A stretch of DNA of 31,987 nucleotides from a virus, in the IMG/VR virus record IMGVR_UViG_3300045988_053677, positions 1 to 31,987 of that record. One strand, 5' to 3'. The notes beneath the pieces are model-generated. The model was not told the origin of the DNA. It saw only the letters and a program-made list of their open reading frames with translations, and did no database searches. Positions within the stretch are counted from its first letter, which is position 1, and each line of letters opens with the position of its first letter. The position numbers and the translations under genes are program-made. Below, piece after piece: positions 1-31,302 of the stretch.

Positions 1-55
1 GAATACATGGGTATGAGTTGGTATTCAAACATACAGGCGGGGAATGTAGACATGC
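1..55. repeat. Terminal direct overlap: nt 1-55 are identical to nt 31933-31987, so the window is a closed circle (or circularly permuted genome) with a 31,932-bp unit
   Basis: Read directly: GAATACATGGGTATGAGTTGGTATTCAAACATACAGGCGGGGAATGTAGACATGC occurs at both ends. An open reading frame continues across the join in phase. Confidence 0.95.
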
Positions 56-227
56 CGGTGAAAACCTTGCTTGGCGAACCGACAACACTGTAGGTACTAC
101 ACGAGACGCCTTTAACTGGTGGATGAGCTCAGAGCCTCATCGTAAAGCTATACAAGATTCTAAATACACGAAAACGGGCATAGGAATAAACAAAGATGTC
201 GTAGTCCAGCACTTCTGCCAACCATAA
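3..227 (+). CDS. CAP/SCP (YkwD-like) secreted protein, C-terminal part; continues from the ORF starting at 31623 across the circular junction
   Basis: The frame of 31623.. maps onto codons 3,6,..18 here. Motifs GENLAW and WMSSEPHRKAI...KTGIGI are typical of the CAP/YkwD family. Stop TAA at 225-227. Confidence 0.8.
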   Translation: MHGYELVFKHTGGECRHAGENLAWRTDNTVGTTRDAFNWWMSSEPHRKAIQDSKYTKTGIGINKDVVVQHFCQP

Positions 228-249
228 ATAACATCTTCTACTGAGTCTC

Positions 250-277
250 TCTCCTTATAAAAATAAGGAGATTTTTT
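250..277 (+). terminator. Rho-independent terminator whose 3' arm contains the Shine-Dalgarno of the next gene
   Basis: TCTCCTTA (250-257) / TAAGGAGA (264-271) form a perfect 8-bp stem with a 6-nt loop, followed by T6 (272-277) and then ATG at 278. Confidence 0.7.
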
Positions 278-1486
278 ATGGGCTATAGAAGTTGGTTACA
301 AGGTTATGTAAACAATCACCCAGATCAAAACACAAGGTCTCAAGGACAAGGGTTGCTAAACGTCGTCGGCGATGACATGGGTATCGACCGTAACTTTCTA
401 TCTGGCAATGTAGGCAATGGTGGCAATTTTCGTAAAACAGGATGGTTTGGTAATCACACCTGGGTAAAAGGCGGTAATGGTGCTCTATATAAAAATGACG
501 AAATTAGTGGCATTAATGACCGTTTTAAGCAGCTGTATTATGCGGATATGGCTAGGGCTGGCCAAACAGGCAATAACGACCAAGGAGACAACACTCAAGG
601 TCCTGGCGGCGGAGGTGGCGGCGGTGGCGGTTTCAACCCATTCGCTGCTCAAGAAGCTAGAAACAAGGCAGACGCTATCGCTAAGTACGATGACGAGATT
701 AACCAAGCTAACTCAGCTATCAACCGTCTAGGCGGGCAGGAAGCCGTCGGTATTGCTAATGCTGGAAAAGCTAAAGACCGCGCATGGCAAGAAAACGAAA
801 ACAGCTTCAATGAGTCAACTGGTCGTTACAACATGAACACCAAAGACGCAATTGACAATATTAAAAAGACACGCGACCAAATCGAAAGCGACACAGCAAC
901 TAAGGTTCGCTCAGCTAAGGGTATTCTAGCGGCTGGTGGTGCAGGAGATAGCTCATTCGCTAAGACTGTAGCACCTTATGAGATCGCTAAAGCCGCCTCA
1001 AAGCAGCAAGGCGAAGCTCAGGACGCATACGCTAAGAACCGTCGAGATATGGACGTCAATTATTTCGCAGTGAAGAATGCTTACAACAAAAACAAAGACG
1101 ACATTCAGAGCGAATATGACAACCGTGTGAACAGCGTGAAGCAAAAGGTGGCACAATCTCGTGCTGAACTACTAGACCGCATTAGAAGCGCTAACGTGGG
1201 CAAACAGACGGCAAATGGTTCAAGTATGGCAGCTGCTATCGCAAGCCAGCAAGGTACACGCGACCAAATCAACCGTTTGGGCACAGAAGTTGACGAATTA
1301 GGACGTGATCGCAGTATTCCTATCCAAAAAGTGGACTGGAAAGCACCAGACCTTGCGACATACGACCCTAAGGACGTTACTGTCAAGGATAATTCAGAGA
1401 TTGGTGGTGTAAATGATGAGATTTCACCAAACTTGCGCCCAATCTTAAGCGACGAAGAGAAAAAGAAAAAGCAAGAATTAATGTAG
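278..1486 (+). CDS. Hypothetical virion protein with a Gly9 run and long coiled-coil-like Q/K/A/D-rich region; possible internal/ejection protein
   Basis: 402-aa ORF with SD AAGGAG 7 nt upstream. Nine consecutive Gly codons at 605-631. It lies directly upstream of the giant virion-module gene. No recognised catalytic motif. Confidence 0.6.
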   Translation: MGYRSWLQGYVNNHPDQNTRSQGQGLLNVVGDDMGIDRNFLSGNVGNGGNFRKTGWFGNHTWVKGGNGALYKNDEISGINDRFKQLYYADMARAGQTGNNDQGDNTQGPGGGGGGGGGFNPFAAQEARNKADAIAKYDDEINQANSAINRLGGQEAVGIANAGKAKDRAWQENENSFNESTGRYNMNTKDAIDNIKKTRDQIESDTATKVRSAKGILAAGGAGDSSFAKTVAPYEIAKAASKQQGEAQDAYAKNRRDMDVNYFAVKNAYNKNKDDIQSEYDNRVNSVKQKVAQSRAELLDRIRSANVGKQTANGSSMAAAIASQQGTRDQINRLGTEVDELGRDRSIPIQKVDWKAPDLATYDPKDVTVKDNSEIGGVNDEISPNLRPILSDEEKKKKQELM

Positions 1487-1499
1487 GGAGTATTAGGAG

Positions 1500-4400
1500 A
1501 TGGATTTTTTTCAAAGAATAGGCAACTTTTTTCAAGGAAAGGGCTGGGTTAGTGATGAGGAAAAACGCCGTAAAGAACAGCAAACACAACCTCAGAATAA
1601 GCCAGCAGTTACTTTTAAGCAGGACCCTGTCTTAAATAACTTAAACAAGGCACCTAGCTTTGGTAGTCCATCTCCTACTCAAGGACTTTTTCAGCAAAAA
1701 CCTCAAACAGATACAGTACCTAAAACAGATACGGTACCTAAAGTAAATACAGTACCAACGGCAAATCAATTCACTAAGCCTGTTATTCCTGAGATTAAGC
1801 CAGAAATCCCTCAGAAGACTATAAATGACGCCCCTAAGGTACTGACCCCTCAAGGGCAACAAGACTGGGTAAACAAAGAAAACAAGCAAATCCAAACTCA
1901 AAACTTAGTAAACAAACCTATAATTACACCTAAAAAACCTACATATTTTGATTATTTGAACCCATTTGGCGAGCATGGTCTGTTCGGTGCAAAACAACAA
2001 CAAAACTTTAAGAGAACAATAGAAAAGCCAATCACAGACAATGTTAACAAGTTCAACAACTGGATTGACTCTTCAGATAAAGAAAAAGGATTCCAATGGA
2101 GCGACCCAGGAGATTATTTACGATTTGCAGCTAAAATACCTGGTGGTATGGTTCAAGGGCTAGCAGAAGCCCCAAGTAAAGCAGCTAACGCAATTACAGG
2201 TCTAGAAGCGGATGAGAACGGCAAAGTAAAGCAATTAAACGGTGTTCAGAGGTTCGGTAAAGGGCTGGATGCAGGCATTTCAGTAGGTGGATTAGGATTC
2301 GGCGGTTCAGGCACACTTCTTCGTAGCTTAGCAGGCAAGGCGACGGGTAATGTATTAAAAGAAGGCGCAAAACAGGGTATTGGTCGTACTGTATTAAATG
2401 GTACAAAAAACCTAGTTAAGGATTCACTTAAAGAAGGTGCAGAAGAAGTTACACAGACGTTTGCACAAGACCTAGCAGATGACGGCAAGATAAACATGAA
2501 TAAAGACGCCTATATCCAATCTGGGGCGTTTGGCGCTCTCGGAGGTGGTATGATGCATGGTGCTGGTCGTGCTGTAAATGGTGTAAAGGGAATGGTAGGA
2601 AATAGGATTAATCCCTATGGAGAGAATGGTGTTGGGATTAACAGACTATCTCCAAGCCAAATGAAATACAACGCAGCCGAAGTTGTGGGCGGCATAACTG
2701 GGGATACGAGAAAACGTCTCAGTCAAGCAGCTTTTGGTGATCTACAGAAGGCGCGAACTGGCAATCCGTACCGAACAAGCGATGGAATGGATGTGGAACT
2801 GAGTAAAGCAGGTAATAGAAAATACACGAGTACAGGAGCTCGTGCTATTAATGATAATTTTATAGTTAAACAGCGCTTGGCGCCTCAAATAGATGAGGTT
2901 ATTGCGAAGTCTAAGCTTATTGATAGCGCTGAAGACACCAAGAATCACGGAATAGCACCTGATGGGTTTGATTACAGAGAAATTCCTGTGCGATATAGGG
3001 GTAAAGATTATGTGTCAACAATAGATATTGCAAAGAATAATACAACAGGGCGCAATACTCTTTATGAAGGTAATGTGCGAAGCCAAGAAAAAAGCCACCC
3101 AGGTGACCTTAATGGTGCGCCCCGTGGACAAGCCGAACGGGGACTGGGCGACTTTTCTAATGAAAATGTAACACAAGAAGCCCAGAATGTCAATGAAGAC
3201 GTTAAATACAAGCTCAATCCAGAGTATGAAGCGCAAGTCAGAGCGTATAACGAACACATAACACGTCTACGCCAACGTGAAGAATACTTACGCGGTCAAG
3301 GAATGAGTGAAAATGCTCCAGCCATGATTAACCTACGTAAAGCTCAAGAGCAAGCTATATACGCCAGAGATCATATCGGTGAGGTAGATGAGAACGGATT
3401 GAAGTATAAATTAAGCCCAGAACAAGAAACGTTCTTTAAGGACTCTAAGATCCGAGACGAAAATGGCAATCTTAAGACTGTATACCACGGAACAAGCACA
3501 GACTTTAACCAGTTTGATCCTGATAAGATACAACAGGATAACTTGGGTAAAGGTTTTTACTTTACAGACAACAAAGACATAGCAGATAGTTACGCTAGCA
3601 GAAGGACTCGCGAAAGAGGGGGCGACCGCAAAGTTGTAGAGGCATTTTTGAACATTAAGAAGCCCTTCGATCTAAACTATCAGCCTAGAGAGGTTGCTTT
3701 GGATTATTTAACCCATTACTTTTTAAGCCAGGGTAAAACTAAAGAAATGGCGCTAAGGAATGCTGAGGATCTCTTAAACAGCAGTTTAGCTAGCGGTGAT
3801 ATTGTAGATAATAATTACGATATTGTGTTTGACACTAGCGAGCCAGAATTCCAAACTTGGGCAAGAAATAATGGCTATGATGGATTAATAGTCCCAGGCA
3901 GAGATAAAGCAAGTGGGGCAAGTGGCGACGCTGTTGTTGCCTTCAAGCCAGAACAGATCAAATACACCGATAACCTAAGTCCAACTGACAATCCAGATAT
4001 GCGGTATAAGCTAGGTGCCAAAATGCAGGAGTTAGCTAGCCAAAACAAGCTACTAGCACGCCACCTACAACTGACAGGCGATGAAAACCTTGTCTTCAAT
4101 GAGTGGCAGAATGAAATGCAGAAGAAAGCATTAGGCTACTACGATCCAAAGACTGACCAAATCAACCTAAATAAGCTTACAGAAGACACTCTAAACCACG
4201 AATTAGGACATAAATTACTTACCCGAGTAGAGAACAAACAAGACCTATTAAACTCTATCCGTGAGTCTTATGGAGATGAATATTTAATAAACAAATATGG
4301 CAGTCAATATGGAAACGACCTAAACCTACTAGCAGAAGAGCAACTAGCCGACGGATTCAGCGATTATTATAACGGAAGATTAAAGGGTGAAGATAAAGTA

Positions 4401-7400
4401 CGTCTAGGTACTAGATTAGGTATTCCTCAAAAAGTCTTAGCAATATATGACCGAATTACTGAAGCTATTATGGGACTCGTTGGTAAACAAGACGCTATTA
4501 AACAATTCTACGCTCAAATGGAGACGGGGAAGTTCAAAAACGAGGTGTTCGGAAATACCGAACAGTTGCCAGCGTATAAGCTTCAGGAAACTATTAACGA
4601 AATGGAAGCCAAACCTAAACCTAGAATGACTAGGGAGCTAAGGGATGCTATAGACGAGTTTATATATGAGAATATAGATCCAAAACTGTTCTTAGAGCAT
4701 AATGACACAAATATCCTCGGAAGTCATGGATTGACGTGGAGTATCCCACGCCTACATGTAGACGACCTAAAACACTACCTAGGAAAGGAGTTGGCTGGAG
4801 ACCTACCGTCTAACTATAAACGCCGTACTGGTAAGCGAGATATCGATACAGTAGCTCAGGAAATGGGATATGACGACATCGATACGTTTATCGATGAAAT
4901 TAAGCGAGTAGCTGAAGCACGTCGTGCAGAAAGAGAGCGAAAAGCCCTATTGGCAGAGTGGCGTAGGGATCCAGATGTCATTGAAGAAGCTCAGAAGATG
5001 CTTGCAGAGCGTCATGCCGAAGAAGCTAAGGTAGAGGCTGAGAAGAAAATAGAAGAAGCTCAGATGATTGCAGAGCGACATGTAGAAGAAACACCCAAAC
5101 CACCGACAAACGCAGAAAGGGTCTCTTCTATTGAACCAGCTGACATTAATAATGATGACTACGTAAACGAGCTAGTCAAAGATCAAAGAGCAGCCCGTAA
5201 AGGCGAACAACCTACCCTTAGAGAGCGTTGGCAAGACTTCAAAGCAGATATGCGTGAGAAATTCGTGGACAGATTTGCCCCAATCGAAGATAGAATTAAA
5301 AATCAATCTGAACAATTAGAAATGCGAAACGCCCTGGATAGGACTTTGCGTGCAGACGGTATATCAGAAGCGTTTATTCGAGATAACAATTTTGATAAGT
5401 TAATTACTGGATTTAAGAATAAAAAAGAATTACAAACGTTTGAACAGGCGTTAATTGCTAAGCACGCCCTGGAATTAGAATCTAATGGAGTAGAAACAGG
5501 ACGAGATCTTGCAAAAGATAAAGCTCTTATAAAAGCTACGGATAAGCGATTCGCCAAAGAATTCAAACAAGTAAGAGAATATTCTGATAAAATTTTACAG
5601 CAAACAGTAGATTACGGACTTATCAGTCAAGATACTGCCAATTATTTGAGGAAGAAATATCCAGACTACATACCGTTTGACCGTATATTCTCTGACAAAG
5701 AAATAAACACTCAAATGAAACATGGAGTAGGTGTTGGAGAAGCTAGTTTAAGCACTCAGAGTATTATCCAACGTATTGAAGGGTCATCTCGATTAATCGA
5801 TAGCCCATTAAACGCATTGATTACAAAAACTCAAGACATGGTTCGACAGGGTGAACGCAATAAAACAGCTGAGCTTCTAGCAAGTTACGCTAAAGACCCT
5901 AAGAACCCATTCCAATTACGAGAATTAAAGCCTGATGAGAGTGCAGATGGACGACCAACTATCAGCTACTTAGATAATGGTAAAAAGCGTACATTCTTAG
6001 CCGCTCCTGAAGTAGCTAAAGCCGCTAAAAATATGAACCGTGAGCAGATGAATATCGTATTAAGAGCTTTGGCAACACCTGCTCGTGTGCTGAGAATGGG
6101 CGCAACGACAGTCAACGCAGGCTTTACTATGGCTAACGTCGTAAAGGACTTTGTGGGCGCTACTATCAACTCTAAGGGCGGGATTAATTCAATGAACCCT
6201 AAGACTCTTGCTGAGGCGATAGGTGCAGGATTCCACCATAAGGGCGATCTTTATTTAGAAATGCAACGAGAAGGTGTAGTGGGTAATAGTTATGAAATCC
6301 TACGCAACGCCTCTGAATTAAATCTAAATGAGATACGTAGCCATAAGAATCTGGCTACACGAGCTCTTCATAACCTAAAATCACCACTACGAACACTAGA
6401 AAACACTATTGGGCGCAGTGAAGATATCGGACGAGCAATTCAGTATGTCTCAAATAAAAAATACGCCAAGCGAAAAGGCATGAGTGAATCTGAAGCCGTG
6501 AAGTTTGCAGCCGACCAAGCAAGGTGGAACTCTACAAACTTTGCCAGAAGCGGAACATACGGCAAAACTATAAACGCTGTAGTGCCTTACTCAAATGCAA
6601 ATATCCAAGGTCAACGTATTACCTTACGTCGAATGAAAGAAAACCCAGTAAGGTATACAGCAAAAATCACTATGGGAGTAGTAGCCCCAACAATTGCCGT
6701 TCTAGCATGGAACTACGCTGACGAAGACCGCAAAAAAGTCATGGAGAATATCCCTGACTATGTGAAAGAAAATAACGTAGTCGTTGTTGGCCGTAATGCG
6801 AAATACAACAAAGAACAAAACAAGTGGGAAGGTGTATATCTAGTACCAGTACCACCTCAATTCTCACCACTTCACCGCCAATTAAATAATATGGTAGCAA
6901 GTACGATGGCAGGCAAGAAGTTCGATATGGTAAAAACTGGTGGAGATGCAGTGGAGCAGATTACGACAGTCAACCCAACCGAATTAAGGCGAACAGGTGC
7001 TCAATATATACCACAAGCCGCAAAACCACTAGTAGAGTTATTTGCTAATAAGAATCTGTTTACAGGTCAAGAAATTGTACCAGAAGCAATGAAAAACCTT
7101 GAACAGAAAGACCAGTGGGATAGTAGCACGAGCCTCACAGCCCGAAAAGTCGGTGAACTTACAGGTCTTAGCCCTAAGCAAATAGACAACGCGTTTAGAA
7201 CGTCTACAGCGGGCGGTGGACAGAACCTGCTTCACGGTATGGATTTTGCTATAGCAAAGGCTACAGGGGCTTCTGATGACGAAATAAAGGGTAGAAGTAT
7301 GTTAGACTCAGTCGTTGGACGATTCTACGCGCCAAAAGGTACAAGCCAAAGTTCATACTTCTACCAATCATTAGAACAAGCCTCTAAGGATAATAAGCTT

Positions 7401-8450
7401 GTCGGTGACGATTTAGCATTCTTCAAGGCTCTAACTACTCGAAAATACAACGGAGACGGTAGCGTAGAGGGCAAAACAGAGGGTGATGTCTTAATGAACA
7501 ACCGAATTCTAGCAAATAAGCCAAACATAGTTAAAGCCCTCAGTGAGGCGGCTAAGTGGCGCTCAGCACAAACAGGTGAAGAGCTAGACCCTCTATACAA
7601 ACTCCCAGTCGACAAACAACAGTACTTCTATCACTTACAAGGTTCACCAAAGAACGGTGCCGAGCAGAGAAAACTGAAACAAGACGCACCTTGGCTAGAA
7701 GATTTCCAAAAAGAAAGAAGTGCATACTTTAAGCGTCAAGACTTCAAGTCTGGAAAGAGTAATCGAGTACCTTATCCAGAGGTAAGTGATGAACTACAAG
7801 CCACTCTAAAAACATATCACGATATGCCAAGTAGCCCTCAGAAATGGGCATTCTTGGACGCTCACCCTGAATTATCTGATCACTACAAACAAATAGAGGA
7901 TTACAACAATAAGGTGAGAGAGGCTCAAGGCTACGCTCCACTGCGAACCCGCCCACAGCAAAGTCAGTACGTAAAAATGCAAATGGCTAATAAAAACTGG
8001 CGAGACCCTGCCGTTGCTAAATATTTACAGGATCTGAATGTTTACAACATCACGAATTCGGCTTCTCTGGCAGAAATGCAAGGCGAAGAACTATCTCCTA
8101 AAGCCCTAAAGGCTATACAGAGTGTAGGAAAGTATGGACTAGTTAAGAATCCAGACGGAACATTCGCTCTTAAATACCCAGACGGTCAAGGTACTAACGA
8201 ATCTCATATTCAAGCAGGCGCTGTAGATATGAGTAGCTTCGGCAGGAGAAGAGGCGGAAGAGGTGGCTCATCAAACGGTGGTATCAAAACTTCTACAGAC
8301 ACCCTTAAACTGTCAAACGCTACAGCTCTAGGTATGAATGCCTTCAAAAAGAATAAGGGCGGGTTACCACAGTTCTCAGTTAGGGCTATTCAGAAGAGCG
8401 ACCTATTAAAATCACGCAAACCAAGGAGCAGGGCAGTTACATTTAGGTAG
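1500..8450 (+). CDS. Giant (2,316 aa) polyvalent protein: low-complexity N-terminus, ART-like (ADP-ribosyltransferase of polyvalent proteins) domain, HExxH metallopeptidase-like domain, charged coiled coil, ~1,000-aa C-terminal region; probable packaged/ejected effector
   Basis: Uninterrupted ORF with SD AGGAG upstream. aa ~634-825 (nt ~3399-3975) read FFKDSKIRDENGNLKTVYHGT...GKGFYFT...VVAFKPEQIKYTDN, matching my memory of the ART-PolyVal family. HELGH is at aa 900-904 (nt 4197-4211). The gene sits in the virion module. Confidence 0.75.
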   Translation: MDFFQRIGNFFQGKGWVSDEEKRRKEQQTQPQNKPAVTFKQDPVLNNLNKAPSFGSPSPTQGLFQQKPQTDTVPKTDTVPKVNTVPTANQFTKPVIPEIKPEIPQKTINDAPKVLTPQGQQDWVNKENKQIQTQNLVNKPIITPKKPTYFDYLNPFGEHGLFGAKQQQNFKRTIEKPITDNVNKFNNWIDSSDKEKGFQWSDPGDYLRFAAKIPGGMVQGLAEAPSKAANAITGLEADENGKVKQLNGVQRFGKGLDAGISVGGLGFGGSGTLLRSLAGKATGNVLKEGAKQGIGRTVLNGTKNLVKDSLKEGAEEVTQTFAQDLADDGKINMNKDAYIQSGAFGALGGGMMHGAGRAVNGVKGMVGNRINPYGENGVGINRLSPSQMKYNAAEVVGGITGDTRKRLSQAAFGDLQKARTGNPYRTSDGMDVELSKAGNRKYTSTGARAINDNFIVKQRLAPQIDEVIAKSKLIDSAEDTKNHGIAPDGFDYREIPVRYRGKDYVSTIDIAKNNTTGRNTLYEGNVRSQEKSHPGDLNGAPRGQAERGLGDFSNENVTQEAQNVNEDVKYKLNPEYEAQVRAYNEHITRLRQREEYLRGQGMSENAPAMINLRKAQEQAIYARDHIGEVDENGLKYKLSPEQETFFKDSKIRDENGNLKTVYHGTSTDFNQFDPDKIQQDNLGKGFYFTDNKDIADSYASRRTRERGGDRKVVEAFLNIKKPFDLNYQPREVALDYLTHYFLSQGKTKEMALRNAEDLLNSSLASGDIVDNNYDIVFDTSEPEFQTWARNNGYDGLIVPGRDKASGASGDAVVAFKPEQIKYTDNLSPTDNPDMRYKLGAKMQELASQNKLLARHLQLTGDENLVFNEWQNEMQKKALGYYDPKTDQINLNKLTEDTLNHELGHKLLTRVENKQDLLNSIRESYGDEYLINKYGSQYGNDLNLLAEEQLADGFSDYYNGRLKGEDKVRLGTRLGIPQKVLAIYDRITEAIMGLVGKQDAIKQFYAQMETGKFKNEVFGNTEQLPAYKLQETINEMEAKPKPRMTRELRDAIDEFIYENIDPKLFLEHNDTNILGSHGLTWSIPRLHVDDLKHYLGKELAGDLPSNYKRRTGKRDIDTVAQEMGYDDIDTFIDEIKRVAEARRAERERKALLAEWRRDPDVIEEAQKMLAERHAEEAKVEAEKKIEEAQMIAERHVEETPKPPTNAERVSSIEPADINNDDYVNELVKDQRAARKGEQPTLRERWQDFKADMREKFVDRFAPIEDRIKNQSEQLEMRNALDRTLRADGISEAFIRDNNFDKLITGFKNKKELQTFEQALIAKHALELESNGVETGRDLAKDKALIKATDKRFAKEFKQVREYSDKILQQTVDYGLISQDTANYLRKKYPDYIPFDRIFSDKEINTQMKHGVGVGEASLSTQSIIQRIEGSSRLIDSPLNALITKTQDMVRQGERNKTAELLASYAKDPKNPFQLRELKPDESADGRPTISYLDNGKKRTFLAAPEVAKAAKNMNREQMNIVLRALATPARVLRMGATTVNAGFTMANVVKDFVGATINSKGGINSMNPKTLAEAIGAGFHHKGDLYLEMQREGVVGNSYEILRNASELNLNEIRSHKNLATRALHNLKSPLRTLENTIGRSEDIGRAIQYVSNKKYAKRKGMSESEAVKFAADQARWNSTNFARSGTYGKTINAVVPYSNANIQGQRITLRRMKENPVRYTAKITMGVVAPTIAVLAWNYADEDRKKVMENIPDYVKENNVVVVGRNAKYNKEQNKWEGVYLVPVPPQFSPLHRQLNNMVASTMAGKKFDMVKTGGDAVEQITTVNPTELRRTGAQYIPQAAKPLVELFANKNLFTGQEIVPEAMKNLEQKDQWDSSTSLTARKVGELTGLSPKQIDNAFRTSTAGGGQNLLHGMDFAIAKATGASDDEIKGRSMLDSVVGRFYAPKGTSQSSYFYQSLEQASKDNKLVGDDLAFFKALTTRKYNGDGSVEGKTEGDVLMNNRILANKPNIVKALSEAAKWRSAQTGEELDPLYKLPVDKQQYFYHLQGSPKNGAEQRKLKQDAPWLEDFQKERSAYFKRQDFKSGKSNRVPYPEVSDELQATLKTYHDMPSSPQKWAFLDAHPELSDHYKQIEDYNNKVREAQGYAPLRTRPQQSQYVKMQMANKNWRDPAVAKYLQDLNVYNITNSASLAEMQGEELSPKALKAIQSVGKYGLVKNPDGTFALKYPDGQGTNESHIQAGAVDMSSFGRRRGGRGGSSNGGIKTSTDTLKLSNATALGMNAFKKNKGGLPQFSVRAIQKSDLLKSRKPRSRAVTFR

Positions 8451-8582
8451 TTTTGTGGTAAAATAAGAATAATTCTAATCCACCGAAGTGCTTGGCGATT
8501 GGATACATAAAAATAACAAGTGGTTATTTGTGTATTCGCTCCCAAGCACTTTTTCATGAATAACCACGGAAAGGTGGATTTC

Positions 8583-9206
8583 ATGAATTTATCAGAGGTG
8601 ATAAATCTTGCCTACCAAATGGCAACAGGAAAAACAAAAACACTAAGTGTGGGTAACTCTAAATATGAGAGGATGCTCAATATCGCTAACATGGCAAATA
8701 TGCAATGGGAAAGCGAGCCAGACGTTATATGGGGTTCATTGTGTGAAGATAGGGAAATAGGTGTAATTGACGATAATACGTCATACAAGCTTCCAGAAGA
8801 CGTTAGAACAGTAGATTTCCGTAAGTTTATAACACTAAAGAAAGACGATAAGACTTGGACTATCCCATTTATCTCCCCTCAGCTGTTTAAGAACGGTTGT
8901 TATGGCGCTTTACAGCTAGGTTGGAAGTTAGATTTTAATGGATTAACTGAAGAAATGAAGGGCGCGAAAATCATTGCGCCAGTTATTCGTCGTACTAAAA
9001 AATTGGTAGAACCAGAAGACAAAGTAGAAGTAGATGACCCTTATTGGCTAATTTATATGATGGCTGCTGAGTTCGTTAGAAATAGCCGCACCAAATCTAA
9101 TCAATACGGGAATCTAGTTACTCTAGCTCAATCTTCTATGGCAGGGATGAAGAGTCGCAATGGTTATAAGTTTGACGAAGTAATTCGAGAGGATGTTTGG
9201 ATATGA
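8583..9206 (+). CDS. Hypothetical virion protein (~207 aa); size and position are compatible with a tail adaptor / tubular-A-like protein
   Basis: ATG 8583 follows AAGGTGGA. The upstream extension to 8520 in the ORF track lacks an SD. No motif recognised. Confidence 0.5.
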   Translation: MNLSEVINLAYQMATGKTKTLSVGNSKYERMLNIANMANMQWESEPDVIWGSLCEDREIGVIDDNTSYKLPEDVRTVDFRKFITLKKDDKTWTIPFISPQLFKNGCYGALQLGWKLDFNGLTEEMKGAKIIAPVIRRTKKLVEPEDKVEVDDPYWLIYMMAAEFVRNSRTKSNQYGNLVTLAQSSMAGMKSRNGYKFDEVIREDVWI

Positions 9207-11251
9207 TAACTCCCCCTAGAAGTACTGCTCAGCCAGAAATTAGTAGATTAAGTATTAAGTCTTGGAACAAAGGCTACATATCTGCTATGGATGCGGGACG
9301 CATGCCTAATAGTGGTCTGCTAAAGATGACCAACGCTATGCTAAGGCAAAATGGAACCGTTGCTCCTCGCCCAGGCACTAGGCAATACGGGGACACTCTA
9401 CCTGGGGAGATCTTAGGTTTTGATGAATATGTTGAAATTGTTGGTAATAAGCGAGTAACTAAACTCTTAGCTATCGTGAAAGACGGTGAGAGAGCCCACG
9501 CTTATACAGCACTAGATGGCAAAAACTGGGTGAAGATTGACGGAGCAGACTATAACGGAGAGGCTTATCCTACTTTTACTCAAGTTAGGGATAGAGTGGT
9601 TATCACCAACAGTAAAGACTATTTGTCTTACTATGATATCCAAAAGAAAAAGAATGTTCGACCAGAGGCTTTACCAACTGTTACTGGGGTAAAGGCAGAG
9701 GCTGTAGGTATGGCTGGCACAAATGAAACGCTATATTACTGTGTAACTGCAGTCAAAAACGGAGAAACAGCAAGAAGTGATTCTGCAAGCGTCAAAGTGA
9801 GTAAGGGGCGTACCGAATGGCGAGGGAAGAATGTTGATAAGACAAAAGGTCAAGCTGAAGAGTATGTAAAAATCACTTGGAACAAAATCAAAGACGCTGA
9901 ATATTACATTCTCTACTGTGGGATATCTCCAACAAGCCTCCGAATGATGGATATTGTCGGTCAAATCAACGACACCGCATCAACTCAGTCATATGAAGAT
10001 GTGGGGCAGAAGATTCTCAATCCAAACGTTATTCCACCTAATTCAAATAGCACAGCAGGAGTTAAAGCCGCACGATCGGTACTTGTAGCTAGTCGCTTAT
10101 ATCTTTTAGGCGACGAAGATGACCCTTGGAAAATAACTTTTGGTGGTGCTGATCCTGATACTATGTTAGACTTCTCGGCGTTTGCTGGTGGCTATATCCG
10201 AATCAATGCAGGTTCAAAAGAAATACCTGTTGCAATGCGTCCATTTAGAAACGGTAAAGGTGATGCTGTGCCGATGGTTCTATGCTCAGAAACTAATGGT
10301 AATGGTAGTTTGAAATATCTACAATCATCAAGCATGCAATTAGATTCTACAAATATCCAATGGATAAGCGTGATTGACGATAATGGACGAGATGGAACAG
10401 ACGCACCAGATTCAGTTGTGGTCTATAATAACGCACTTATTTACATCTCTAAGACTGGATTCAAAACGACCCTCACTAAACCTCAAATGCAGAACGTTTT
10501 ATCTACCGATAGCCTGACAGACAACATTCAGCCTGACGTTGAACGCTTAAATAGTAATTTTATTCATAAATCTATCGGTCTAGAGGTGAACGGTATGATT
10601 TATTTTGCCGTGCCAGTTGGTAGCGAAAAATTAAACCAATTATGGGTACTGGATATGAAGCGTGGCGGTGTTTGGTGTATGCCTTGGGTGATAGGCGACA
10701 TTAATGACTTAAAAGTTTACGGAAGTAGCGACGGAAAAACACGCGTACTTCTAGCTATCGAAGACAAGCTTATCGAGCTAACTGATGAAGTAAAAATGAC
10801 AGACAGCGGAAAGCCGTTTATCACTGATATAGGCTCAGGGGTTGTGAAGTTTTCTGAAGATGGCGCGATGTGGACAAGCCTAGTGGATATTACATTTATT
10901 TTGCTCAAACCTACAGGAACCATTAACTTCTCAGTATCTGGAAAAACCGAAGACGAACCACTTCAGCCGTTCTTAAACTTCAGCAAAAACTTTACCCCAA
11001 AAACTGTCCCAATTGGGTGGTGTACTACTTCAGGCTGGAATAGCCCTCTGGGTTGGGGATTTGTGCCAAAAAAATATAAATCATCAAGCGGTGAGGTGAG
11101 GCTATCAATCACTAAGGATATTGACGAAGACGTGAACTGGATTCAGTACTCAGTCGCGGCGAATGAAGCAGGGGCAGACTTTGAGCTGTCTGACGTAATA
11201 ATCCAACACATACCGATAGGAGTAATTTTTGAGGAGGACGAAGATGAATAA
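9197..11251 (+). CDS. Hypothetical large tail protein (684 aa), possibly nozzle / tubular-B-like
   Basis: Long ORF overlapping the previous stop by 10 nt (translational coupling), beta-rich composition, position before the lysis and fibre genes. The function is inferred from size and synteny only. Confidence 0.45.
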   Translation: MDMITPPRSTAQPEISRLSIKSWNKGYISAMDAGRMPNSGLLKMTNAMLRQNGTVAPRPGTRQYGDTLPGEILGFDEYVEIVGNKRVTKLLAIVKDGERAHAYTALDGKNWVKIDGADYNGEAYPTFTQVRDRVVITNSKDYLSYYDIQKKKNVRPEALPTVTGVKAEAVGMAGTNETLYYCVTAVKNGETARSDSASVKVSKGRTEWRGKNVDKTKGQAEEYVKITWNKIKDAEYYILYCGISPTSLRMMDIVGQINDTASTQSYEDVGQKILNPNVIPPNSNSTAGVKAARSVLVASRLYLLGDEDDPWKITFGGADPDTMLDFSAFAGGYIRINAGSKEIPVAMRPFRNGKGDAVPMVLCSETNGNGSLKYLQSSSMQLDSTNIQWISVIDDNGRDGTDAPDSVVVYNNALIYISKTGFKTTLTKPQMQNVLSTDSLTDNIQPDVERLNSNFIHKSIGLEVNGMIYFAVPVGSEKLNQLWVLDMKRGGVWCMPWVIGDINDLKVYGSSDGKTRVLLAIEDKLIELTDEVKMTDSGKPFITDIGSGVVKFSEDGAMWTSLVDITFILLKPTGTINFSVSGKTEDEPLQPFLNFSKNFTPKTVPIGWCTTSGWNSPLGWGFVPKKYKSSSGEVRLSITKDIDEDVNWIQYSVAANEAGADFELSDVIIQHIPIGVIFEEDEDE

Positions 11252-11640: not shown

Positions 11641-12615
11641 ATGATAGAAAAAGCACTAGCTTGGTTTTACGCACGTAAAGGTCGAGTTTTTTACTCAATG
11701 GAAAGTCGAAATGGTCCAAATTCGTATGACTGCTCAAGTTCTGTATATCACGCTCTAAAAGAAGCAGGACTTTTACCGTCTAGTTATTGGATTGGCAATA
11801 CAGACACCTTATTTGACGCCTTAGAGAAGAACGGCTGGGTACGACTGCCTGAGGACGTTAACGGCGAGGCAGACACGCAACGCGGCGATATCTTTATCTG
11901 GGGTATTCGCGGCAATTCAGGTGGCGCGTTGGGTCATACAGGAATGTTTGTCGACGCAGATAACGTAATTAACTGTCGCTATCAGGCAGGTATTGTGATA
12001 GATAATCACGACTGGCTCTGGAGTGCCTCAGATTGCCCACCATATGCATTTTACAGGTACGTAGGTAAACCTCAAGAAGCAAAGCGTGTAGCACTTCCTG
12101 AAGTCTACTATGCAGACGAAGTAGCAACTGTATTCGACCTACGACAAATTAGGTGTAACCGATTGATTGACGAGTTCGATTGGGGAGACAATGGCGTACC
12201 TGTTTCTGTAGCTGTAAAGACAGATAAAGACGGCTACTTACTTGACGGCGAGATAAATACAGGAGATTACTTCCGAATCGTTGGCAGCACAGAGGTGCTA
12301 GACGAAACTACCGAGAATAACAAACGCTATCTACAACTGAAAATGGCTAATGACGGAATCTGGGTATTAGCAGAACGAGTACGCGGACTAGCGAACGGAG
12401 ATGCAGGCACGCCACGACCAGAAAAACGCCCTGCAGTAGTTACACCTGCCACGAAATATGAAGTAGAGGGAAAGCCAGAGATTATAGCACCACAACCTAC
12501 CAACGAAGATGTTATGAGGTCTATCGCTAAATTAAGTCAAGACATCGCTAAGAATAAAAGCCTATTAGAGAAGATTATCGATTTTCTGATGAGTATTTTT
12601 AAGTTCAATAAATAA
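11641..12615 (+). CDS. Endolysin: N-terminal Amidase_5-type peptidoglycan hydrolase, central SH3-like binding region, C-terminal Pro-rich linker plus amphipathic tail
   Basis: KALAWFYARKGRVFYSMESRNGPNSYDCSSSVYHAL...GDIFIWG...GHTGMFVD closely resembles the N-terminus of the pneumococcal phage Dp-1 Pal amidase as I remember it. SD AGGAGG lies upstream. Confidence 0.85.
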   Translation: MIEKALAWFYARKGRVFYSMESRNGPNSYDCSSSVYHALKEAGLLPSSYWIGNTDTLFDALEKNGWVRLPEDVNGEADTQRGDIFIWGIRGNSGGALGHTGMFVDADNVINCRYQAGIVIDNHDWLWSASDCPPYAFYRYVGKPQEAKRVALPEVYYADEVATVFDLRQIRCNRLIDEFDWGDNGVPVSVAVKTDKDGYLLDGEINTGDYFRIVGSTEVLDETTENNKRYLQLKMANDGIWVLAERVRGLANGDAGTPRPEKRPAVVTPATKYEVEGKPEIIAPQPTNEDVMRSIAKLSQDIAKNKSLLEKIIDFLMSIFKFNK

Positions 12616-16369: not shown

Positions 16370-17248
16370 ATGGATAAAAGTACTACGTTGGAGCGTGCGT
16401 TGTTTTACTTTGTGAAACATAAAGAAGCGCATGGTAAAGCCACCAATACGACAAAAGCAACTTACATTTGTATTCTTGAAGACTTTATCAAATCGATAAA
16501 AGCCGATACGGTTGGCGACTTAGATATTTTGATGATTGATAACTTTATCGACACCTTATCTTTGAAAAGCTACAAGCCGAAAACTATCAAAAATAAAATC
16601 GTGGTTATTAGAAGTTTTATCAAATTTTTGTATTCTAAAAACCTTATAGACATCAGACCTGAAGCGATTGAAATACCAAGAACCGTTGAAGTAGAGGCTA
16701 ATTTTTTAGATGAAGAAGAACAATGTGCTCTGATAAAATCCGCTAGAAATCTAAGAGATAAAGCCTTGATTATGACTATATTAAGCAGTGGGTTGCGGGC
16801 TTCCGAAATCTTAAATCTCAAGGAGGATGATTTATACAGAAGGTCTCTTATAGTTTCTAGAGGAAAAGGCGGAAAGCCAAGAGTAACTTTTATCGATCCT
16901 CTAACAGAAAAGTCTATTAGAGAATATCATCACAAAAGAGAAGTAGACTCTGTTTTTGTTTTCACGAACTCTTTTGGAAAGCCTCTCAGCCGACAATATC
17001 TCTCAAGAATGATATCCGAAACCGCTCTAAGAGCTGGGATTAAAAAGAGAGTAAGCGCGCACACTTTAAGACATAGTTTCGCTACTAATATGCTACGAAA
17101 AGGAGCAAGAATTGAAGATGTTCAGCCTTTAATGGGTCATTCAAACATCTCAACCACTAGATTGTACATGCATTTTACGAACGAATATTTAAGAGAACGC
17201 TACGATATGTTCAATAAAGATATTGACAAAACGCTCGCGGTTTGCTAA
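16370..17248 (+). CDS. Tyrosine recombinase, XerC/XerD-like (integrase family)
   Basis: The N-terminal SAM-like core-binding region and catalytic motifs are present: SGLRASEIL, AHTLRHSFATNML, MGHSNISTTRLYMH. Confidence 0.9.
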   Translation: MDKSTTLERALFYFVKHKEAHGKATNTTKATYICILEDFIKSIKADTVGDLDILMIDNFIDTLSLKSYKPKTIKNKIVVIRSFIKFLYSKNLIDIRPEAIEIPRTVEVEANFLDEEEQCALIKSARNLRDKALIMTILSSGLRASEILNLKEDDLYRRSLIVSRGKGGKPRVTFIDPLTEKSIREYHHKREVDSVFVFTNSFGKPLSRQYLSRMISETALRAGIKKRVSAHTLRHSFATNMLRKGARIEDVQPLMGHSNISTTRLYMHFTNEYLRERYDMFNKDIDKTLAVC

Positions 17249-17397: not shown

Positions 17398-17402
17398 ATC
17401 TA

Positions 17403-17424: not shown

Positions 17425-17432
17425 AATTTCCA

Positions 17433-26715: not shown

Positions 26716-28356
26716 GTGGCTTTTTCTTTTATAGATGAATCTAACATCGGCGATGCTTACTATGAGAGTAAGCAGAAGTACCAGGCAGTTTTATCTGGTA
26801 TTGACGAGCTTGAGCGTATTGCTCTAAACAAACCTAAGCCAAACATACCGGCTGGCTTACCTAATGTTACAGACGGAACTACAGCTAGTTATATTCAATC
26901 TCGCCCTAAGAGCGTTATTCAGCAGCTACCAACTGGATTAGTTACTAGTCTAGATAAAGACAAAGATTTAGCAAATATCGCTAATTTAGTCTTAACTGAA
27001 GAAATCTTACTAAATGCCAACACGACGGGCAGTGTTATTCAAAAGTCATGGGGAGCCTTAAGCAAAGCTATGACTTACGGCTCACAGCCTGCTTATTGTT
27101 TTTATACACAACATGGAAATTATTTTGGAGCAGACTTCAAACTACCTTATATCAAAGACGTTATTTTAGAGGCTGGAAAAGTATATGACAAAGACTGTAA
27201 CGTTATTTTCTTAAGGGCTTGGTATCAACCGAGCGATATCAAATATCTAATTCATCGAGAAAAACAATTAAGTAAACAGGGTATAAAGAGTGGTTGGAGA
27301 TTAGATAAACTTACTCAACTAGAGGCAAAGGAAAAATCAGACGAAAGCAAATCGCCAGCTGAGCGAGAAAAGAACCTTGAAGTTGGTGGTATAGAGATTA
27401 TTTTCGCATTTCAGAATGGCGTAGGAGCTACTTTTTACGGATATAGCCCAGAGATTAGCGAAGTAGTCTATTCAACTATAAATCCAGACCCACGAGGCAT
27501 TATCCCAATTCATTTTATATATCACGATATGGATATGTCTAATCCAATCGGCCGTGGTGCAGTCGAGCTTGTAGCAGGACTTCAAAACATGCTTGATTCA
27601 GAAATGCAGATGTATCAATACGCACAAGCCCTAAGCCTTAACCCACCACTAATTAAGCGAGGTTCATTTGATACTTCAACTATACGATTCAAAGTAAACG
27701 CAATATGGGATTTGGGAGCAGATCAAAACGCAAGCATCTCACCTGCTAATATTTCAACTAATGGAATAACTAACTTCTCAAATAATTACGGTTTAATTAA
27801 AAGTCAAATATTAAACTTGAACAACTCAAACGATACAAGTGTTTCTGCTGAAGTCGGAAATCCTGGATTCTCAAAGACAGATAGCGGAGTGAAGGCGCAA
27901 CAGGAGCGTGTTGGTGTTAGTGATAACCATCTTCGTAAACAATTCGAAGGCTGGTTTGGTGATGTCTGTGAGACTATGCTTAATATTCATTTTGCTTTGT
28001 CTGAGGGTAAAAAAGATATTGACCTCACCCAGGAATATATTAAGCGCCGACAACTTGAAGAACCTAATTTTAACAAAAGTATAGCTACTGTCGACTATAA
28101 CAAGAAGCTAAAAGGGTTCAAGTTCAAAGTTGACGCTTCTACCTCAAAGCTTAAAGATGACGAGCAATCTATGGAGAATCTAAAGGGAATCTTAGAGTTG
28201 GCTCAGTCTGACCCTGAGTTAGGACAGATTATCCGCAAAGACCAATTATTGAAGCGAATGATTAACAAATCGGGTGTTGACGACCCTGAAGAGTTGGTTA
28301 TTGACCTAGACCAAAACAATAACGGCATAGCCGACAGTGAGGAACAGTATGAATAA
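26716..28356 (+). CDS. Portal protein
   Basis: 546 aa, immediately after the terminase genes and before the scaffold and capsid genes. GTG start follows GGGGGA. Assigned by size and synteny rather than motif. Confidence 0.65.
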   Translation: MAFSFIDESNIGDAYYESKQKYQAVLSGIDELERIALNKPKPNIPAGLPNVTDGTTASYIQSRPKSVIQQLPTGLVTSLDKDKDLANIANLVLTEEILLNANTTGSVIQKSWGALSKAMTYGSQPAYCFYTQHGNYFGADFKLPYIKDVILEAGKVYDKDCNVIFLRAWYQPSDIKYLIHREKQLSKQGIKSGWRLDKLTQLEAKEKSDESKSPAEREKNLEVGGIEIIFAFQNGVGATFYGYSPEISEVVYSTINPDPRGIIPIHFIYHDMDMSNPIGRGAVELVAGLQNMLDSEMQMYQYAQALSLNPPLIKRGSFDTSTIRFKVNAIWDLGADQNASISPANISTNGITNFSNNYGLIKSQILNLNNSNDTSVSAEVGNPGFSKTDSGVKAQQERVGVSDNHLRKQFEGWFGDVCETMLNIHFALSEGKKDIDLTQEYIKRRQLEEPNFNKSIATVDYNKKLKGFKFKVDASTSKLKDDEQSMENLKGILELAQSDPELGQIIRKDQLLKRMINKSGVDDPEELVIDLDQNNNGIADSEEQYE

Positions 28357-29827: not shown

Positions 29828-30682
29828 ATGGCTATTAATTTGCCACAGGCATACTCAAAAATCCTTGACAAGGGATATACACTTAAATCATTAACAGCAC
29901 CTGCCTTTAAGGGTAAATATGAAGTTGTTGGTGGTACTACTAAATCATTTAAGGTGTACAGCACAGACGCAGCTGCTCTGTATGACTATTCTGCAAATAA
30001 GAATGCTAGCGGTCAGGGTGTTGGCTCATTCGGCTACAAGTATTCAGCAGCTGGTAATAAAGAGCAAGTTATTACGGCTTCTCAGGACAAAGCCTTCTCA
30101 CAGCAAATCGATAAGGCTGACGCTAAGTTCTCACGCGATGGCTCACTCGACGCTAAAGAAGTTATGCGTGTAACTCTAGAAGAGTCTATTTACCCAACAA
30201 TGGATAAATACAACATTGACGCATTAGCAAAAGCAGCTGAAACTACAGCAGTTAAGACTTTGACTATTACTAAGGCAAATGCTTATGAAACATTTATGGC
30301 TATGACTACTGCTCAAACAAACGCTAAAGTACCTCACAAGGGTCGTGTTGCGTTCGTAGCCGCAAGTGCATACTCATTACTAAAACAAGACGGTAGCTTC
30401 ACACCAGCTAGCGAAATGACCGCTAAGAGTCGCCGTGATGGTAACTATGGTGAAATTGACGGCTGTATGATTATCGAAGTTCCAGATGACTACATGCCAA
30501 CTAAGACGACTATCGTTTTGACTCACGAAGACGCAGCAGCAGCTCCAAAATACTTGTCTGAGTACAAGCAGGGTGAATTTGGTCCAGAGGCTAGCGGTTA
30601 CTATGTAGCTGGTCGCGTTGTATACGAAGCATTCGTATTCAACAAGAAAAAGGGTGCTATTCAAGTTCTGAAGAATGCCTAG
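29828..30682 (+). CDS. Major capsid protein
   Basis: Follows the scaffold gene. Strong SD (TAGGAGAA), A/T/G/S/K-rich composition, and followed by a GC-rich terminator hairpin. Assigned by synteny. Confidence 0.7.
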   Translation: MAINLPQAYSKILDKGYTLKSLTAPAFKGKYEVVGGTTKSFKVYSTDAAALYDYSANKNASGQGVGSFGYKYSAAGNKEQVITASQDKAFSQQIDKADAKFSRDGSLDAKEVMRVTLEESIYPTMDKYNIDALAKAAETTAVKTLTITKANAYETFMAMTTAQTNAKVPHKGRVAFVAASAYSLLKQDGSFTPASEMTAKSRRDGNYGEIDGCMIIEVPDDYMPTKTTIVLTHEDAAAAPKYLSEYKQGEFGPEASGYYVAGRVVYEAFVFNKKKGAIQVLKNA

Positions 30683-30846: not shown

Positions 30847-31302
30847 ATGAACAAAGCCCAAAAAATCATTGCTGGTATAGCAGGTGCTGGTATATTATCT
30901 GCACTCGTTGCAACAGCACAACCTAGCACTCAACAAAGTGACATACAGCCAGTAGTACAACCTGTAACATATTCAGACTGTAGAACGGAAGAAATACCGT
31001 TTGAAACGCAGTATGAGGGTGAGACGGGTCAATATGGCTACACTGAAACGATAAAGCAACAGGGCGTCGTTGGCGTCAGGAAAATCTGTAAGCCAAATAA
31101 GCCTGGTCACACAGATAAGGTAGATGTGATTACTCGACCAGTGACTCATATCATTGTCCGTACACCAAAACCAGCACCGCAGCCAGTACAGCAGCAACAC
31201 TATCGTGTTGGAGCAATATGTCGTGACGGTTGGCGATCATACGCTACTGGTAGAGGAGCTTGCTCACACCACGGTGGAGTATCGGAGTGGTTGTATGAGT
31301 GA
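30847..31302 (+). CDS. Secreted/anchored protein with G5-like domain and C-terminal DUF3761 domain
   Basis: N-terminal signal or TM segment IIAGIAGAGILSALVATA. EEIPFETQYE...QQGVVGVRKI is G5-like. CRDGWRSYATGRGACSHHGGVSEWL matches the DUF3761 signature (C.DG..S....G.CShHGGV..W). Confidence 0.7.
   Translation: MNKAQKIIAGIAGAGILSALVATAQPSTQQSDIQPVVQPVTYSDCRTEEIPFETQYEGETGQYGYTETIKQQGVVGVRKICKPNKPGHTDKVDVITRPVTHIIVRTPKPAPQPVQQQHYRVGAICRDGWRSYATGRGACSHHGGVSEWLYE

Follow-up and report, generated by a model that had tools for sequence, protein, structure and literature searches.

A giant polyvalent-protein gene with exchangeable cassettes in a temperate, probably short-tailed phage of oral Saccharibacteria

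Introduction

Polyvalent proteins carry many unrelated effector domains on a single chain (Iyer et al., 2017; PMC5512222). The described set includes an ADP-ribosyltransferase (ART) clade with a His-Tyr-Asp active-site configuration, a zincin-like peptidase that the authors consider the central polyvalent domain because it processes the chain, and, fused to the prototype ART, the N4-like virion RNA polymerase of Roseovarius Plymouth podovirus 1; the large polyvalent protein-associated domain LPD38 is confined to phage-type polyvalent proteins. Here, we analyze a stretch of viral DNA of 31,987 nucleotides (nt) (IMG/VR record IMGVR_UViG_3300045988_053677; hereafter, the window) and the giant gene within it, whose product of 2,316 amino acids (aa) combines ART-PolyVal, LPD3 and LPD38 with a domain carrying an HExxH motif. 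Like the proteins of Iyer et al., it holds many unrelated effector-type domains, an ART of the same clade and a putative zincin-like peptidase; it differs from them in that it has no virion RNA polymerase, MuF or DarB-type methylase-helicase, and in that the Pfam family MPTase-PolyVal misses its peptidase-like domain. We propose, with a probability of about 0.72, that the giant gene of this temperate, probably short-tailed phage of oral Saccharibacteria (TM7) specifies a polyvalent protein that is packaged in the capsid and injected into the host.

Related giant proteins are known from Shiga toxin (Stx) phages, where the gene comes last in the virion module and the phage is temperate and short-tailed (phi24B gp47; Ss-VASD AKO62175.1; P0210, assigned from its size and domains). 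The phi24B protein (2,811 aa; LPD5, LPD1 and LPD38) is abundant in purified virions and absent from the cryo-electron microscopy reconstruction, and its authors propose that it is an ejection protein packed in the capsid (bioRxiv 10.64898/2026.04.10.717836). They name its fourth domain 'MuF-C metallopeptidase' (bioRxiv 10.64898/2026.04.10.717836). In the similar P0210, the corresponding region is MuF_C according to Pfam, and since Iyer et al. class MuF-C as a PBECR RNase domain, the metallopeptidase label should be treated with care. The Stx-phage giants share with the window protein a core of ~740 aa near the C-terminus that contains LPD38, and P0210 likewise has no cysteine. However, identity is ~21% and restricted to this core, the cargo consists of InPase, LPD5, LPD1 and MuF_C instead of LPD3, ART and HExxH, and the host is a diderm enterobacterium, unlike the Saccharibacteria host of the window phage. 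Both Ss-VASD and the window encode a protein of ~400 aa just upstream of the giant gene; BLASTP found no homology between the two. In Escherichia coli phage PTXU04, knock-down of another LPD38 protein, PTXU04_00025 (2,198 aa), strongly cuts plating, and the protein is needed for efficient infection (PMC11879866).

The best match among cultured phages is found in the Bacillus megaterium Pagevirus group (Pascal gp19, 1,672 aa; Pookie gp20; Palmer gp20), with 26-29% identity over aa 1225-1952. There, the large protein is encoded by the last virion-module gene before the lysis cassette of a ~40-kb genome. LPD38 is its only Pfam domain, no ART, LPD3 or HExxH was detected in it, and its N-terminal half is unrelated to that of the window protein. 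Microbacterium phages of cluster EK and Burro have portals homologous to that of the window phage and one giant gene (>4,400 aa, about 25% of a small genome) whose product has been described as probably undergoing processing and associated with the virion. These phages are lytic and carry the giant gene upstream of the portal; a homology between their giant protein and that of the window was considered, and no sequence similarity was detectable. Phage T4 Alt and MuF-toxin fusions embody the same concept of an ART that travels in the head and is delivered along with the genome (Iyer et al.), and differ in their ART family, in the use of a capsid-targeting peptide or MuF anchor, and in being single effectors rather than multi-module chains.

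ART-PolyVal, LPD3 and LPD38 are curated Pfam families, ART plus LPD38 architectures also occur in other phages (P0212, P0219, P0229), and close homologues have already been deposited under the automatic name 'Large polyvalent protein associated domain 38 [Caudoviricetes sp.]'. The giant protein joins a known class and is no new kind of system. What is new or useful here is the Saccharibacteria host, a map of the cassettes, an uncurated zincin-like family, the extension of LPD38 to ~740 aa, the lack of cysteine and a motif at the module junctions.

Results

A single gene with three curated polyvalent domains

The giant gene is one open reading frame (ORF) with an ATG start and 2,316 codons plus stop (Table 1). 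A Shine-Dalgarno sequence, GGGAG at 1486-1490, lies 9 nt 5' of the start, directly past the stop of the preceding gene. The two ends of the window are an identical 55-nt repeat; the assembly is therefore closed and circular with a genome of 31,932 bp, and the window is a complete circular temperate phage genome. The gene occupies 21.8% of it, in line with the ~22% given by a first-pass annotation made from the letters alone. Altogether, 885 database proteins match the giant protein, the best 120 of which are ~2,100-2,500 aa long, with one of 1,731 aa. Because these 120 homologues are near full length and stem from independent metagenome assemblies, the ORF is not an assembly artefact. The homologue census, breakpoints and module counts reported below come from pairwise comparison of these best 120 proteins with the giant protein.

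Three Pfam families score above their cut-offs in the giant protein: ART-PolyVal (E 3.8e-25; 89.7 bits, cut-off 31.2; 135 of 140 profile positions covered), LPD38 (E 3e-21, 76.7-81.8 bits) and LPD3 (29-32 bits against 27). Together with the HExxH domain, they provide the several disparate domains and LPDs by which polyvalent proteins are defined, and the gene also has the expected neighborhood, lying between capsid genes and the presumed tail genes and endolysin. The match to ART-PolyVal bears out the ART-like domain postulated in the first-pass annotation, whose quoted strings DENGNLKTVYHGT (aa 653-665), GKGFYFT (aa 683-689) and VVAFKPEQIKYTDN (aa 812-825) are all present, and the three families together justify its designation of a polyvalent-type protein. 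It had further suggested a toxin-like module at aa ~430-560; the strings cited for it exist (NFIVKQRL... at aa 453-476 and HGIAPDGFDYREIPV at aa 483-497), but the segment corresponds to LPD3, a domain of unknown function.

The absence of a MuF domain had also been predicted correctly, as Pfam scans of the whole protein and of seven segments gave no Phage_Mu_F match. Tape-measure families and peptidoglycan hydrolases were likewise not matched by Pfam or PHROG, the only PHROGs recovered being function-unknown families (mainly phrog_9854, aa 1217-1921). Against the chains of the Protein Data Bank (PDB), the whole sequence and profiles of the HExxH domain (A1) and of the core (A2) produced chance-level matches only. 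The first-pass annotation was to be given up if neither ART nor metallopeptidase profiles matched, or if the protein proved to be a conventional tape measure; what the searches returned was ART-PolyVal, and no tape-measure family.

Candidate catalytic residues of the ART domain are H663, Y687 and D794, which agree with the His-Tyr-Asp configuration of the ART-PolyVal clade (Iyer et al., PMC5512222) and whose columns are kept in three divergent allelic cassettes among the homologues. By analogy, they would be placed on strands 1, 2 and 5. We infer from these sequence features that the predicted domain would act as an ADP-ribosyltransferase on a host target.

The giant protein contains no cysteine in 2,316 residues, compared to 0.76% in the other 22 ORFs (P about 2e-8). 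The same is true for 17 of 17 relatives checked (1,133-2,875 aa), including distant LPD38 giants of the Bacillus and Aeromonas types and types without LPD38, as well as for the 402-aa protein encoded directly upstream. The lack of cysteine fits a protein that would cross a narrow channel unfolded and spend time outside the cytoplasm; it is a fit and no proof.

A fixed frame with three variable cassette slots

Pairwise comparison revealed recurrent breakpoints at aa ~408, 553-573, 638, 818-833, 1027-1042 and 1202-1214. The giant protein consists of a fixed frame and three variable cassette slots, namely LPD3, ART and the linker (Table 1). At least three allelic versions of the ART cassette exist among the homologues; the cassette is cleanly excised in some of them (e.g. 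P0038, P0049), and P0041 carries two ART domains. In P0012, the linker slot is filled by a PBECR3 RNase cassette. Such swapping is the behavior described for polyvalent proteins in an arms race. The linker of the window protein contains the duplicated EEAQ(K)M(L/I)AERH(A/V)EE element noted in the first-pass annotation, located at aa 1162-1175 and 1185-1197 (nt 4983-5024 and 5052-5090).

Within the frame, the N-terminal region (aa 1-140) is also found in relatives with other C-terminal modules; its low-complexity stretch includes a TDTVPK tandem (nt 1707-1742). The Gly/Ala-rich region that follows retains 40-46% identity in distant relatives and yielded no database match. The extreme C-terminus (aa ~2240-2316, nt 8217-8447) is strongly basic and Gly/Ser-rich (GRRRGGRGGSSNGG ... 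KSRKPRSRAVTFR); binding to DNA or to the portal is conceivable for it.

The giant protein contains the tripeptide Y[KR][LI] five times (1.5 expected), and four of these occurrences, VKYKL, LKYKL, MRYKL and PAYKL, lie exactly at breakpoints that had been mapped independently. Relatives at 24-60% identity have a similar motif on the flanks of the HExxH domain, and in other variants such a motif stands before alternative cassettes. The motif-bearing flanks have low confidence in the structure model of the HExxH domain, consistent with exposed linkers. As far as the sequences go, the Y-K-L motifs are candidate cleavage sites or mere recombination joints.

Three of the homologues (P0049, P0051, P0071) are named 'lytic transglycosylase, catalytic' by the Joint Genome Institute (JGI). 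A T7 gp16-like wall-degrading domain, considered on the basis of this name, was dropped when Pfam scans of P0049 and P0071 recovered no such domain; the JGI name is probably a propagated mis-annotation.

The HExxH domain resembles small zincins

The HELGH string given in the first-pass annotation is present at aa 900-904, as is ALGYYDPKTDQINLN at aa 877-891. An exhaustive HMMER scan of 1.84 billion cluster representatives (50% identity clusters) returned only 36 relatives of the domain at E <= 1e-3, of which nearly all are parts of very large proteins. In an alignment of 21 relatives, reaching down to 24% identity, H900, E901, H904, E946, E947 and four glycines are invariant. As in zincins generally, the HExxH motif lies on a helix, here a predicted one, and E946/E947 provide downstream candidates for the third ligand. 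An AlphaFold2 model of the domain (mean predicted local distance difference test, pLDDT, 72; core 85-96) shows three short strands, the HExxH motif in helix 70-82 and both glutamates in a later helix (116-136); in this model, the order of elements is as expected for a small gluzincin.

Profile searches place the domain outside curated families. The isolated segment (aa 830-1070) has no Pfam match even at E <= 10, MPTase-PolyVal included; among the 21 relatives, Pfam gives only Peptidase_Mx (E 0.005) and DUF6782 (E 0.02), each in two members. No peptidase or zincin model of NCBIfam matched the region, the single sub-threshold match being to an unrelated surface-protein family, and a sequence search of the PDB gave no significant match. 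Foldseek comparison of the model with the PDB was not significant either (E > 0.2), with the jannalysin minigluzincin (probability 0.41) and anthrax lethal factor (0.33) among the top four. In BFVD, a library of predicted viral structures, the top scores go to parts of further giant phage proteins, polyvalent or structural ones (probability 1.0, E 3e-3 to 5e-2), with IrrE-like and SprT-like zincins next (all BFVD matches at E 3e-3 to 1e-1). The term 'metallopeptidase-like' used in the first-pass annotation is therefore fair, given the invariant HExxH+EE residues and the sub-significant fold resemblance, while its assignment to MPTase-PolyVal, when tested, found no profile match. In our reading, alignment and model together suggest a genuine 200-aa zincin-like domain of a small, uncurated family. 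The domain is near-universal among the homologues (119 of 120) and the ART is dispensable, a pattern more in keeping with a built-in processing protease than with an effector aimed at the host.

LPD38 is a slice of a larger C-terminal core

When the giant protein was compared with cultured phages by tblastn, only aa ~1225-1965 matched, namely to giant proteins of Bacillus Pagevirus, Pelagibacter, Vibrio, Ruegeria, cyanobacterial and Stx phages. A profile of ~735 residues built from eleven of these proteins recovers 28 of 29 giant proteins found with Pascal gp19, plus Pascal gp19 itself and the Shigella phage Ss-VASD protein (2,793 aa). The match is nearly full length in most of them and always near the C-terminus. 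Ahead of the core, these giants carry diverse enzymes and domains: ART, RadC, InPase, MuF_C and LPDs, as well as methylase or RelA/SpoT according to record annotation. Pfam LPD38 (189 residues) is thus no more than a slice of a ~740-aa module. Besides the 120 close homologues, P0186 alone has the C-terminal extension behind the core.

The structure model of the core, which rests on 11 sequences (pLDDT 65), consists mainly of helices and has two beta-hairpins. One single helix is hydrophobic; it is the only hydrophobic segment of the giant protein (aa 1717-1737, nt 6648-6710). No obviously catalytic constellation of residues is conserved in the core alignment. Foldseek matches of the core to helical membrane transporters in the PDB had TM scores of about 0.1 and were rejected as meaningless noise.

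At least three C-terminal types occur among proteins with a window-type HExxH domain. In the distant oral phage L008 (portal 39% and 684-aa protein 34% identical), the syntenic position is taken by a gene for a 2,875-aa protein (P0170, 7757-16384) that shares the N-terminus (47%), HExxH domain (78%) and linker (72%) with the window protein. The cassettes and the peptidase-like domain are thus far more alike between the two phages than the structural genes, which suggests lateral exchange. Oral-phage giants sharing the HExxH domain, several of them also the N-terminus or the linker, include P0170; P0169, P0176, P0177, P0179 and P0190; and P0174, P0178 and P0189. Their C-terminal ~1,000-1,800 aa form two other families, for which no homology to the LPD38 core or to each other was detectable. 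The possibility that these alternative halves (types B and C) are diverged LPD38 cores was rejected, hmmsearch being negative and hhalign giving probabilities of about 1% or less.

An oral Saccharibacterium as host

In the close relative L005, the phage is integrated as a prophage in a 625-kb scaffold, and genes for YajQ and ribosomal protein L33 lie just past the integrase end (L005 24440-26582). Identical YajQ and L33 proteins are found in 'TM7 phylum sp. oral taxon 348' and Candidatus Saccharibacteria. In a collection of species-representative genomes, three of three matches fall into metagenome-assembled genomes of Saccharibacteria or Nanosynbacter. The host is therefore an oral Saccharibacterium (TM7) and not a Firmicute, and the ordinary Gram-positive host assumed in the first-pass annotation must be replaced. 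Prophages of oral TM7 have been reported, in general terms, in PMC7739484 and PMC10746230; the passages of these articles that were searched do not discuss the giant protein.

Position of the giant gene and likely tail type

The main genes of the genome are co-directional. Replication initiator, DnaB-like helicase and integrase are followed by Erf, exonuclease and single-stranded DNA-binding protein, then by small and large terminase, portal, a scaffold-like gene, capsid and a CAP-domain gene crossing the assembly junction, and finally by the 402-aa gene, the giant gene, the 228-, 684- and 136-aa genes and the endolysin. This arrangement confirms the virion-module position inferred in the first-pass annotation. 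In the window phage as in its relatives, a single conserved gene lies between the capsid gene and the giant gene. The portal is 24-25% identical to those of Microbacterium cluster EK and Burro and of Arthrobacter phages (E 9e-24), and cluster EK and Burro phages are podoviruses by electron microscopy. Based on such comparisons, a short-tailed morphology can reasonably be inferred for the window phage.

In the portal-related podoviruses of Microbacterium (cluster EK and Burro) and Arthrobacter, the gene directly upstream of the portal measures 13.5 kb and encodes 4,494 aa; it is annotated 'tape measure' (L007 6301-19785). The hosts of oral Saccharibacteria are also Actinobacteria, and the portal link to Microbacterium and Arthrobacter phages may reflect shared ecology.

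A gene of similar size to the 402-aa gene precedes the giant gene in L005 (393 aa) and L008 (368 aa), the products being 77% and 27% identical to the 402-aa protein. The best PDB match of the latter, 'N4 gp52-like protein', is at chance level (E 0.05), and the 402-, 228- and 684-aa proteins could not be usefully annotated from PHROG, Pfam, NCBIfam or PDB. The 228- and 684-aa products are presumed to be tail or receptor-binding proteins.

Across the assembly junction (31154-31987 joined to 1-227) runs an ORF whose product has an N-terminal hydrophobic segment. By position, it corresponds to the CAP (PF00188) gene of 190 to 205 aa upstream of the 393- and 368-aa genes in L005 and L008, and it looks like a moron between the capsid and 402-aa genes; the listed ORFs 31154..31585 and 18..227 are probably pieces of it. 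A stretch of ~570 bp after the integrase gene (17250-17820) has no ORF of at least 60 aa and probably holds attP. Promoter and terminator scans around the giant gene stayed at chance level, no tRNAs were found in the window, and a near-identity DNA search against cultured phages gave no match.

Table 1. Features of the giant gene and of its genome. All features lie on the plus strand; the homologue column gives the number of the best 120 homologues that contain the module, with the span counted where it differs from the domain.
Feature	Position (nt)	Residues (aa)	Strand	Homologues	Remarks
402-aa gene	278..1486		+		run of nine Gly; Gln/Asn/Ala-rich; cysteine-free; stop 13 nt before giant start
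Giant polyvalent-protein gene	1500..8450	1-2316	+		ORF call, Shine-Dalgarno, at least 120 close homologues
N-terminal region	1500..1919	1-140	+	120/120	amphipathic start, then Pro/Gln/Thr-rich low-complexity stretch
Gly/Ala-rich region	1920..2699	141-400	+	115/120 + 5 partial	~20% Gly, GxxxG-like runs
LPD3 domain	2712..3053	405-518	+	52/120 (slot aa 401-565)	Pfam PF18798; variable slot
Helical module	3195..3401	566-634	+	116/120	short, conserved; between VKYKL (Y570, nt 3207-3215) and LKYKL (Y636, nt 3405-3413)
ART-PolyVal domain	3456..3974	653-825	+	96/120 + 1 partial (aa 635-830)	Pfam PF18760; optional cassette
HExxH domain	3990..4589	831-1030	+	119/120	HELGH nt 4197-4211; E946/E947 nt 4335-4340; flanks MRYKL (Y836, nt 4005-4013) and PAYKL (Y1026, nt 4575-4583)
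Variable linker	4590..5138	1031-1213	+	61/120 + 1 partial	Glu/Lys/Ala-rich; holds EEAQ..AERH.EE duplication; replaced in 58/120
Conserved core (~740 aa)	5139..7394	1214-1965	+	120/120	mostly alpha-helical; holds LPD38 slice aa 1749-1926, nt 6744-7277
C-terminal extension	7395..8447	1966-2316	+	120/120	basic Gly/Arg/Lys/Ser-rich tail from ~nt 8217
228-aa and 684-aa genes	8520..11251		+		no family match; order behind giant gene kept in relatives
Endolysin (Amidase_5 + ZoocinA_TRD)	11641..12615		+		end of virion module
Tyrosine integrase	16370..17248		+		temperate life style marker
Portal	26716..28356		+		closest cultured relatives are Microbacterium and Arthrobacter podoviruses
Major capsid protein	29828..30682		+		relatives are Firmicute siphophages

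Discussion

The combination of domain content, cassette mosaic and gene position leads us to view the giant protein as a packaged and injected polyvalent protein. Its constant parts, i.e. the N-terminal ~400 aa, the HExxH domain and the C-terminal ~1,100 aa, would form a body that is synthesized alongside the late virion proteins, is loaded into the head and, at infection, is driven out by way of the portal and short tail. The protein would leave the capsid ahead of or with the DNA, and the C-terminal body may help to bridge the cell envelope. Between the constant parts, it would carry exchangeable cassettes: LPD3, ART-PolyVal and the variable linker, the latter being a PBECR3 RNase in some relatives. 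The embedded zincin-like peptidase could cut the chain at exposed inter-module linkers marked by basic-Tyr-Lys-Leu/Ile, and the freed ART would ADP-ribosylate a host target early in infection. The homology to phi24B gp47, which is found in virions, supports packaging of the window protein by analogy and thereby answers this part of the proposal in part.

Other explanations were weighed against this proposal. If the phage were long-tailed, the giant protein could be a tape measure or permanent tail protein that stays with the particle and whose enzymes act on the cell wall. Its great length and partly helical nature would suit such a role, as would its position upstream of the 228- and 684-aa genes, whose products have the size of distal-tail or tail-associated proteins; moreover, the capsid relatives are siphophages and the giant gene of Microbacterium phage Arete is annotated 'tape measure'. 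Yet Pfam and PHROG detected no tape-measure, tail-tube, chaperone or connector family in the window, a single conserved gene separates capsid and giant genes, and the portal is closest to those of podoviruses. In addition, homologues occur in podoviruses verified by electron microscopy or classified as such (Pagevirus and the Sepvirinae phage phi24B), with the protein outside the visible tail, and globular ART and LPD domains would be unexpected in a ruler protein. We consider this explanation very improbable. Even less probable is that the protein is no virion component at all and instead a late cytoplasmic multi-enzyme protein, serving for instance anti-defence, superinfection exclusion or a benefit to the lysogen. 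The phage is temperate and its module also carries moron-like genes (CAP-domain, and DUF3761 plus CAP in a relative), which would accord with a cytoplasmic role; against it stand the fixed position inside the structural operon across distant relatives, the presence of a homologue in virions, the family-wide lack of cysteine and the close coupling of the giant start to the neighboring late gene.

A different division of labor is conceivable for a protein that is packaged and ejected all the same: the HExxH domain could be an envelope-degrading peptidase that opens the wall for the conduit, by cutting peptidoglycan or a surface protein, with the Y-K-L motifs being recombination joints. Ejection proteins of short-tailed phages often carry wall-degrading domains, e.g. 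T7 gp16, and the near-universal occurrence of the HExxH domain in the family is what an entry function would predict. A role of this kind has been proposed for the 'metallopeptidase' domain of phi24B gp47 by its authors (bioRxiv 10.64898/2026.04.10.717836). Several observations speak against it. The domain shows no similarity to M23, M15 or other peptidoglycan peptidase families in Pfam; its nearest folds are intracellular minimal zincins (IrrE/ImmA-like and SprT-like) and the equivalent domains of polyvalent proteins, for which Iyer et al. argue a processing role; and the junction motif is kept in relatives at 24-30% identity, which is hard to explain by recombination alone. We regard a wall-degrading function as unlikely.

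Several points weigh against the reading of a packaged, injected and processed polyvalent protein. Presence in virions has been observed for the homologue phi24B gp47; packaging, self-processing, cleavage at the Y-K-L junctions and ART activity of the window protein itself are a proposal. No curated peptidase model recognizes the HExxH domain, and all fold matches fall short of E 1e-3. The relaxed junction pattern is not clearly enriched over chance, and the motif could simply mark recombination joints. The core model is of moderate confidence (pLDDT 65) and has no PDB analogue, leaving the conduit role without structural support. Proteins of the phi24B type are distant homologues (tblastn E 2e-6 over aa 1500-1864; core profile, 143 bits), and the capsid protein resembles siphophage capsids. 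Finally, the C-terminal 1,800 aa of the L008 giant have no detectable homology to the LPD38 core. A body other than the LPD38 core is therefore possible, and what determines packaging may instead reside in the N-terminal 400 aa. These alternative bodies lower our confidence in the exact division of labor, and not in the overall reading.

More tentatively, the packaged polyvalent protein might be a self-cleaving, ejected polyprotein, in which the new zincin family would cut basic-Tyr-Lys-Leu/Ile junctions after injection and free the cassettes, and in which the N-terminal anchor, peptidase and cassettes could be mounted on at least three unrelated C-terminal bodies. We think it possible, and rather doubtful at present, that all of these elements hold together. 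If true, such a polyprotein would constitute a modular delivery platform in phages of ultra-small episymbionts, for which the integrated 7-kb gene amounts to ~1% of the host chromosome.

Polyvalent proteins are widespread and almost untested experimentally. In the family described here, hundreds of near-relatives differ by the presence, absence or exchange of single cassettes between fixed junctions, which provides explicit domain boundaries and testable candidate cleavage sites. The lack of cysteine and the recognition of LPD38 as a fragment of a ~740-aa module are also practical aids for annotation. Our analysis places an enzyme-bearing protein, probably injected, in phages of Saccharibacteria, episymbiotic bacteria of the candidate phyla radiation whose phage biology is nearly unknown and which are now available as cultivable models. 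The target of the ART, if found, would reveal the host function that has to be disabled first by a phage entering a minimal-genome cell.

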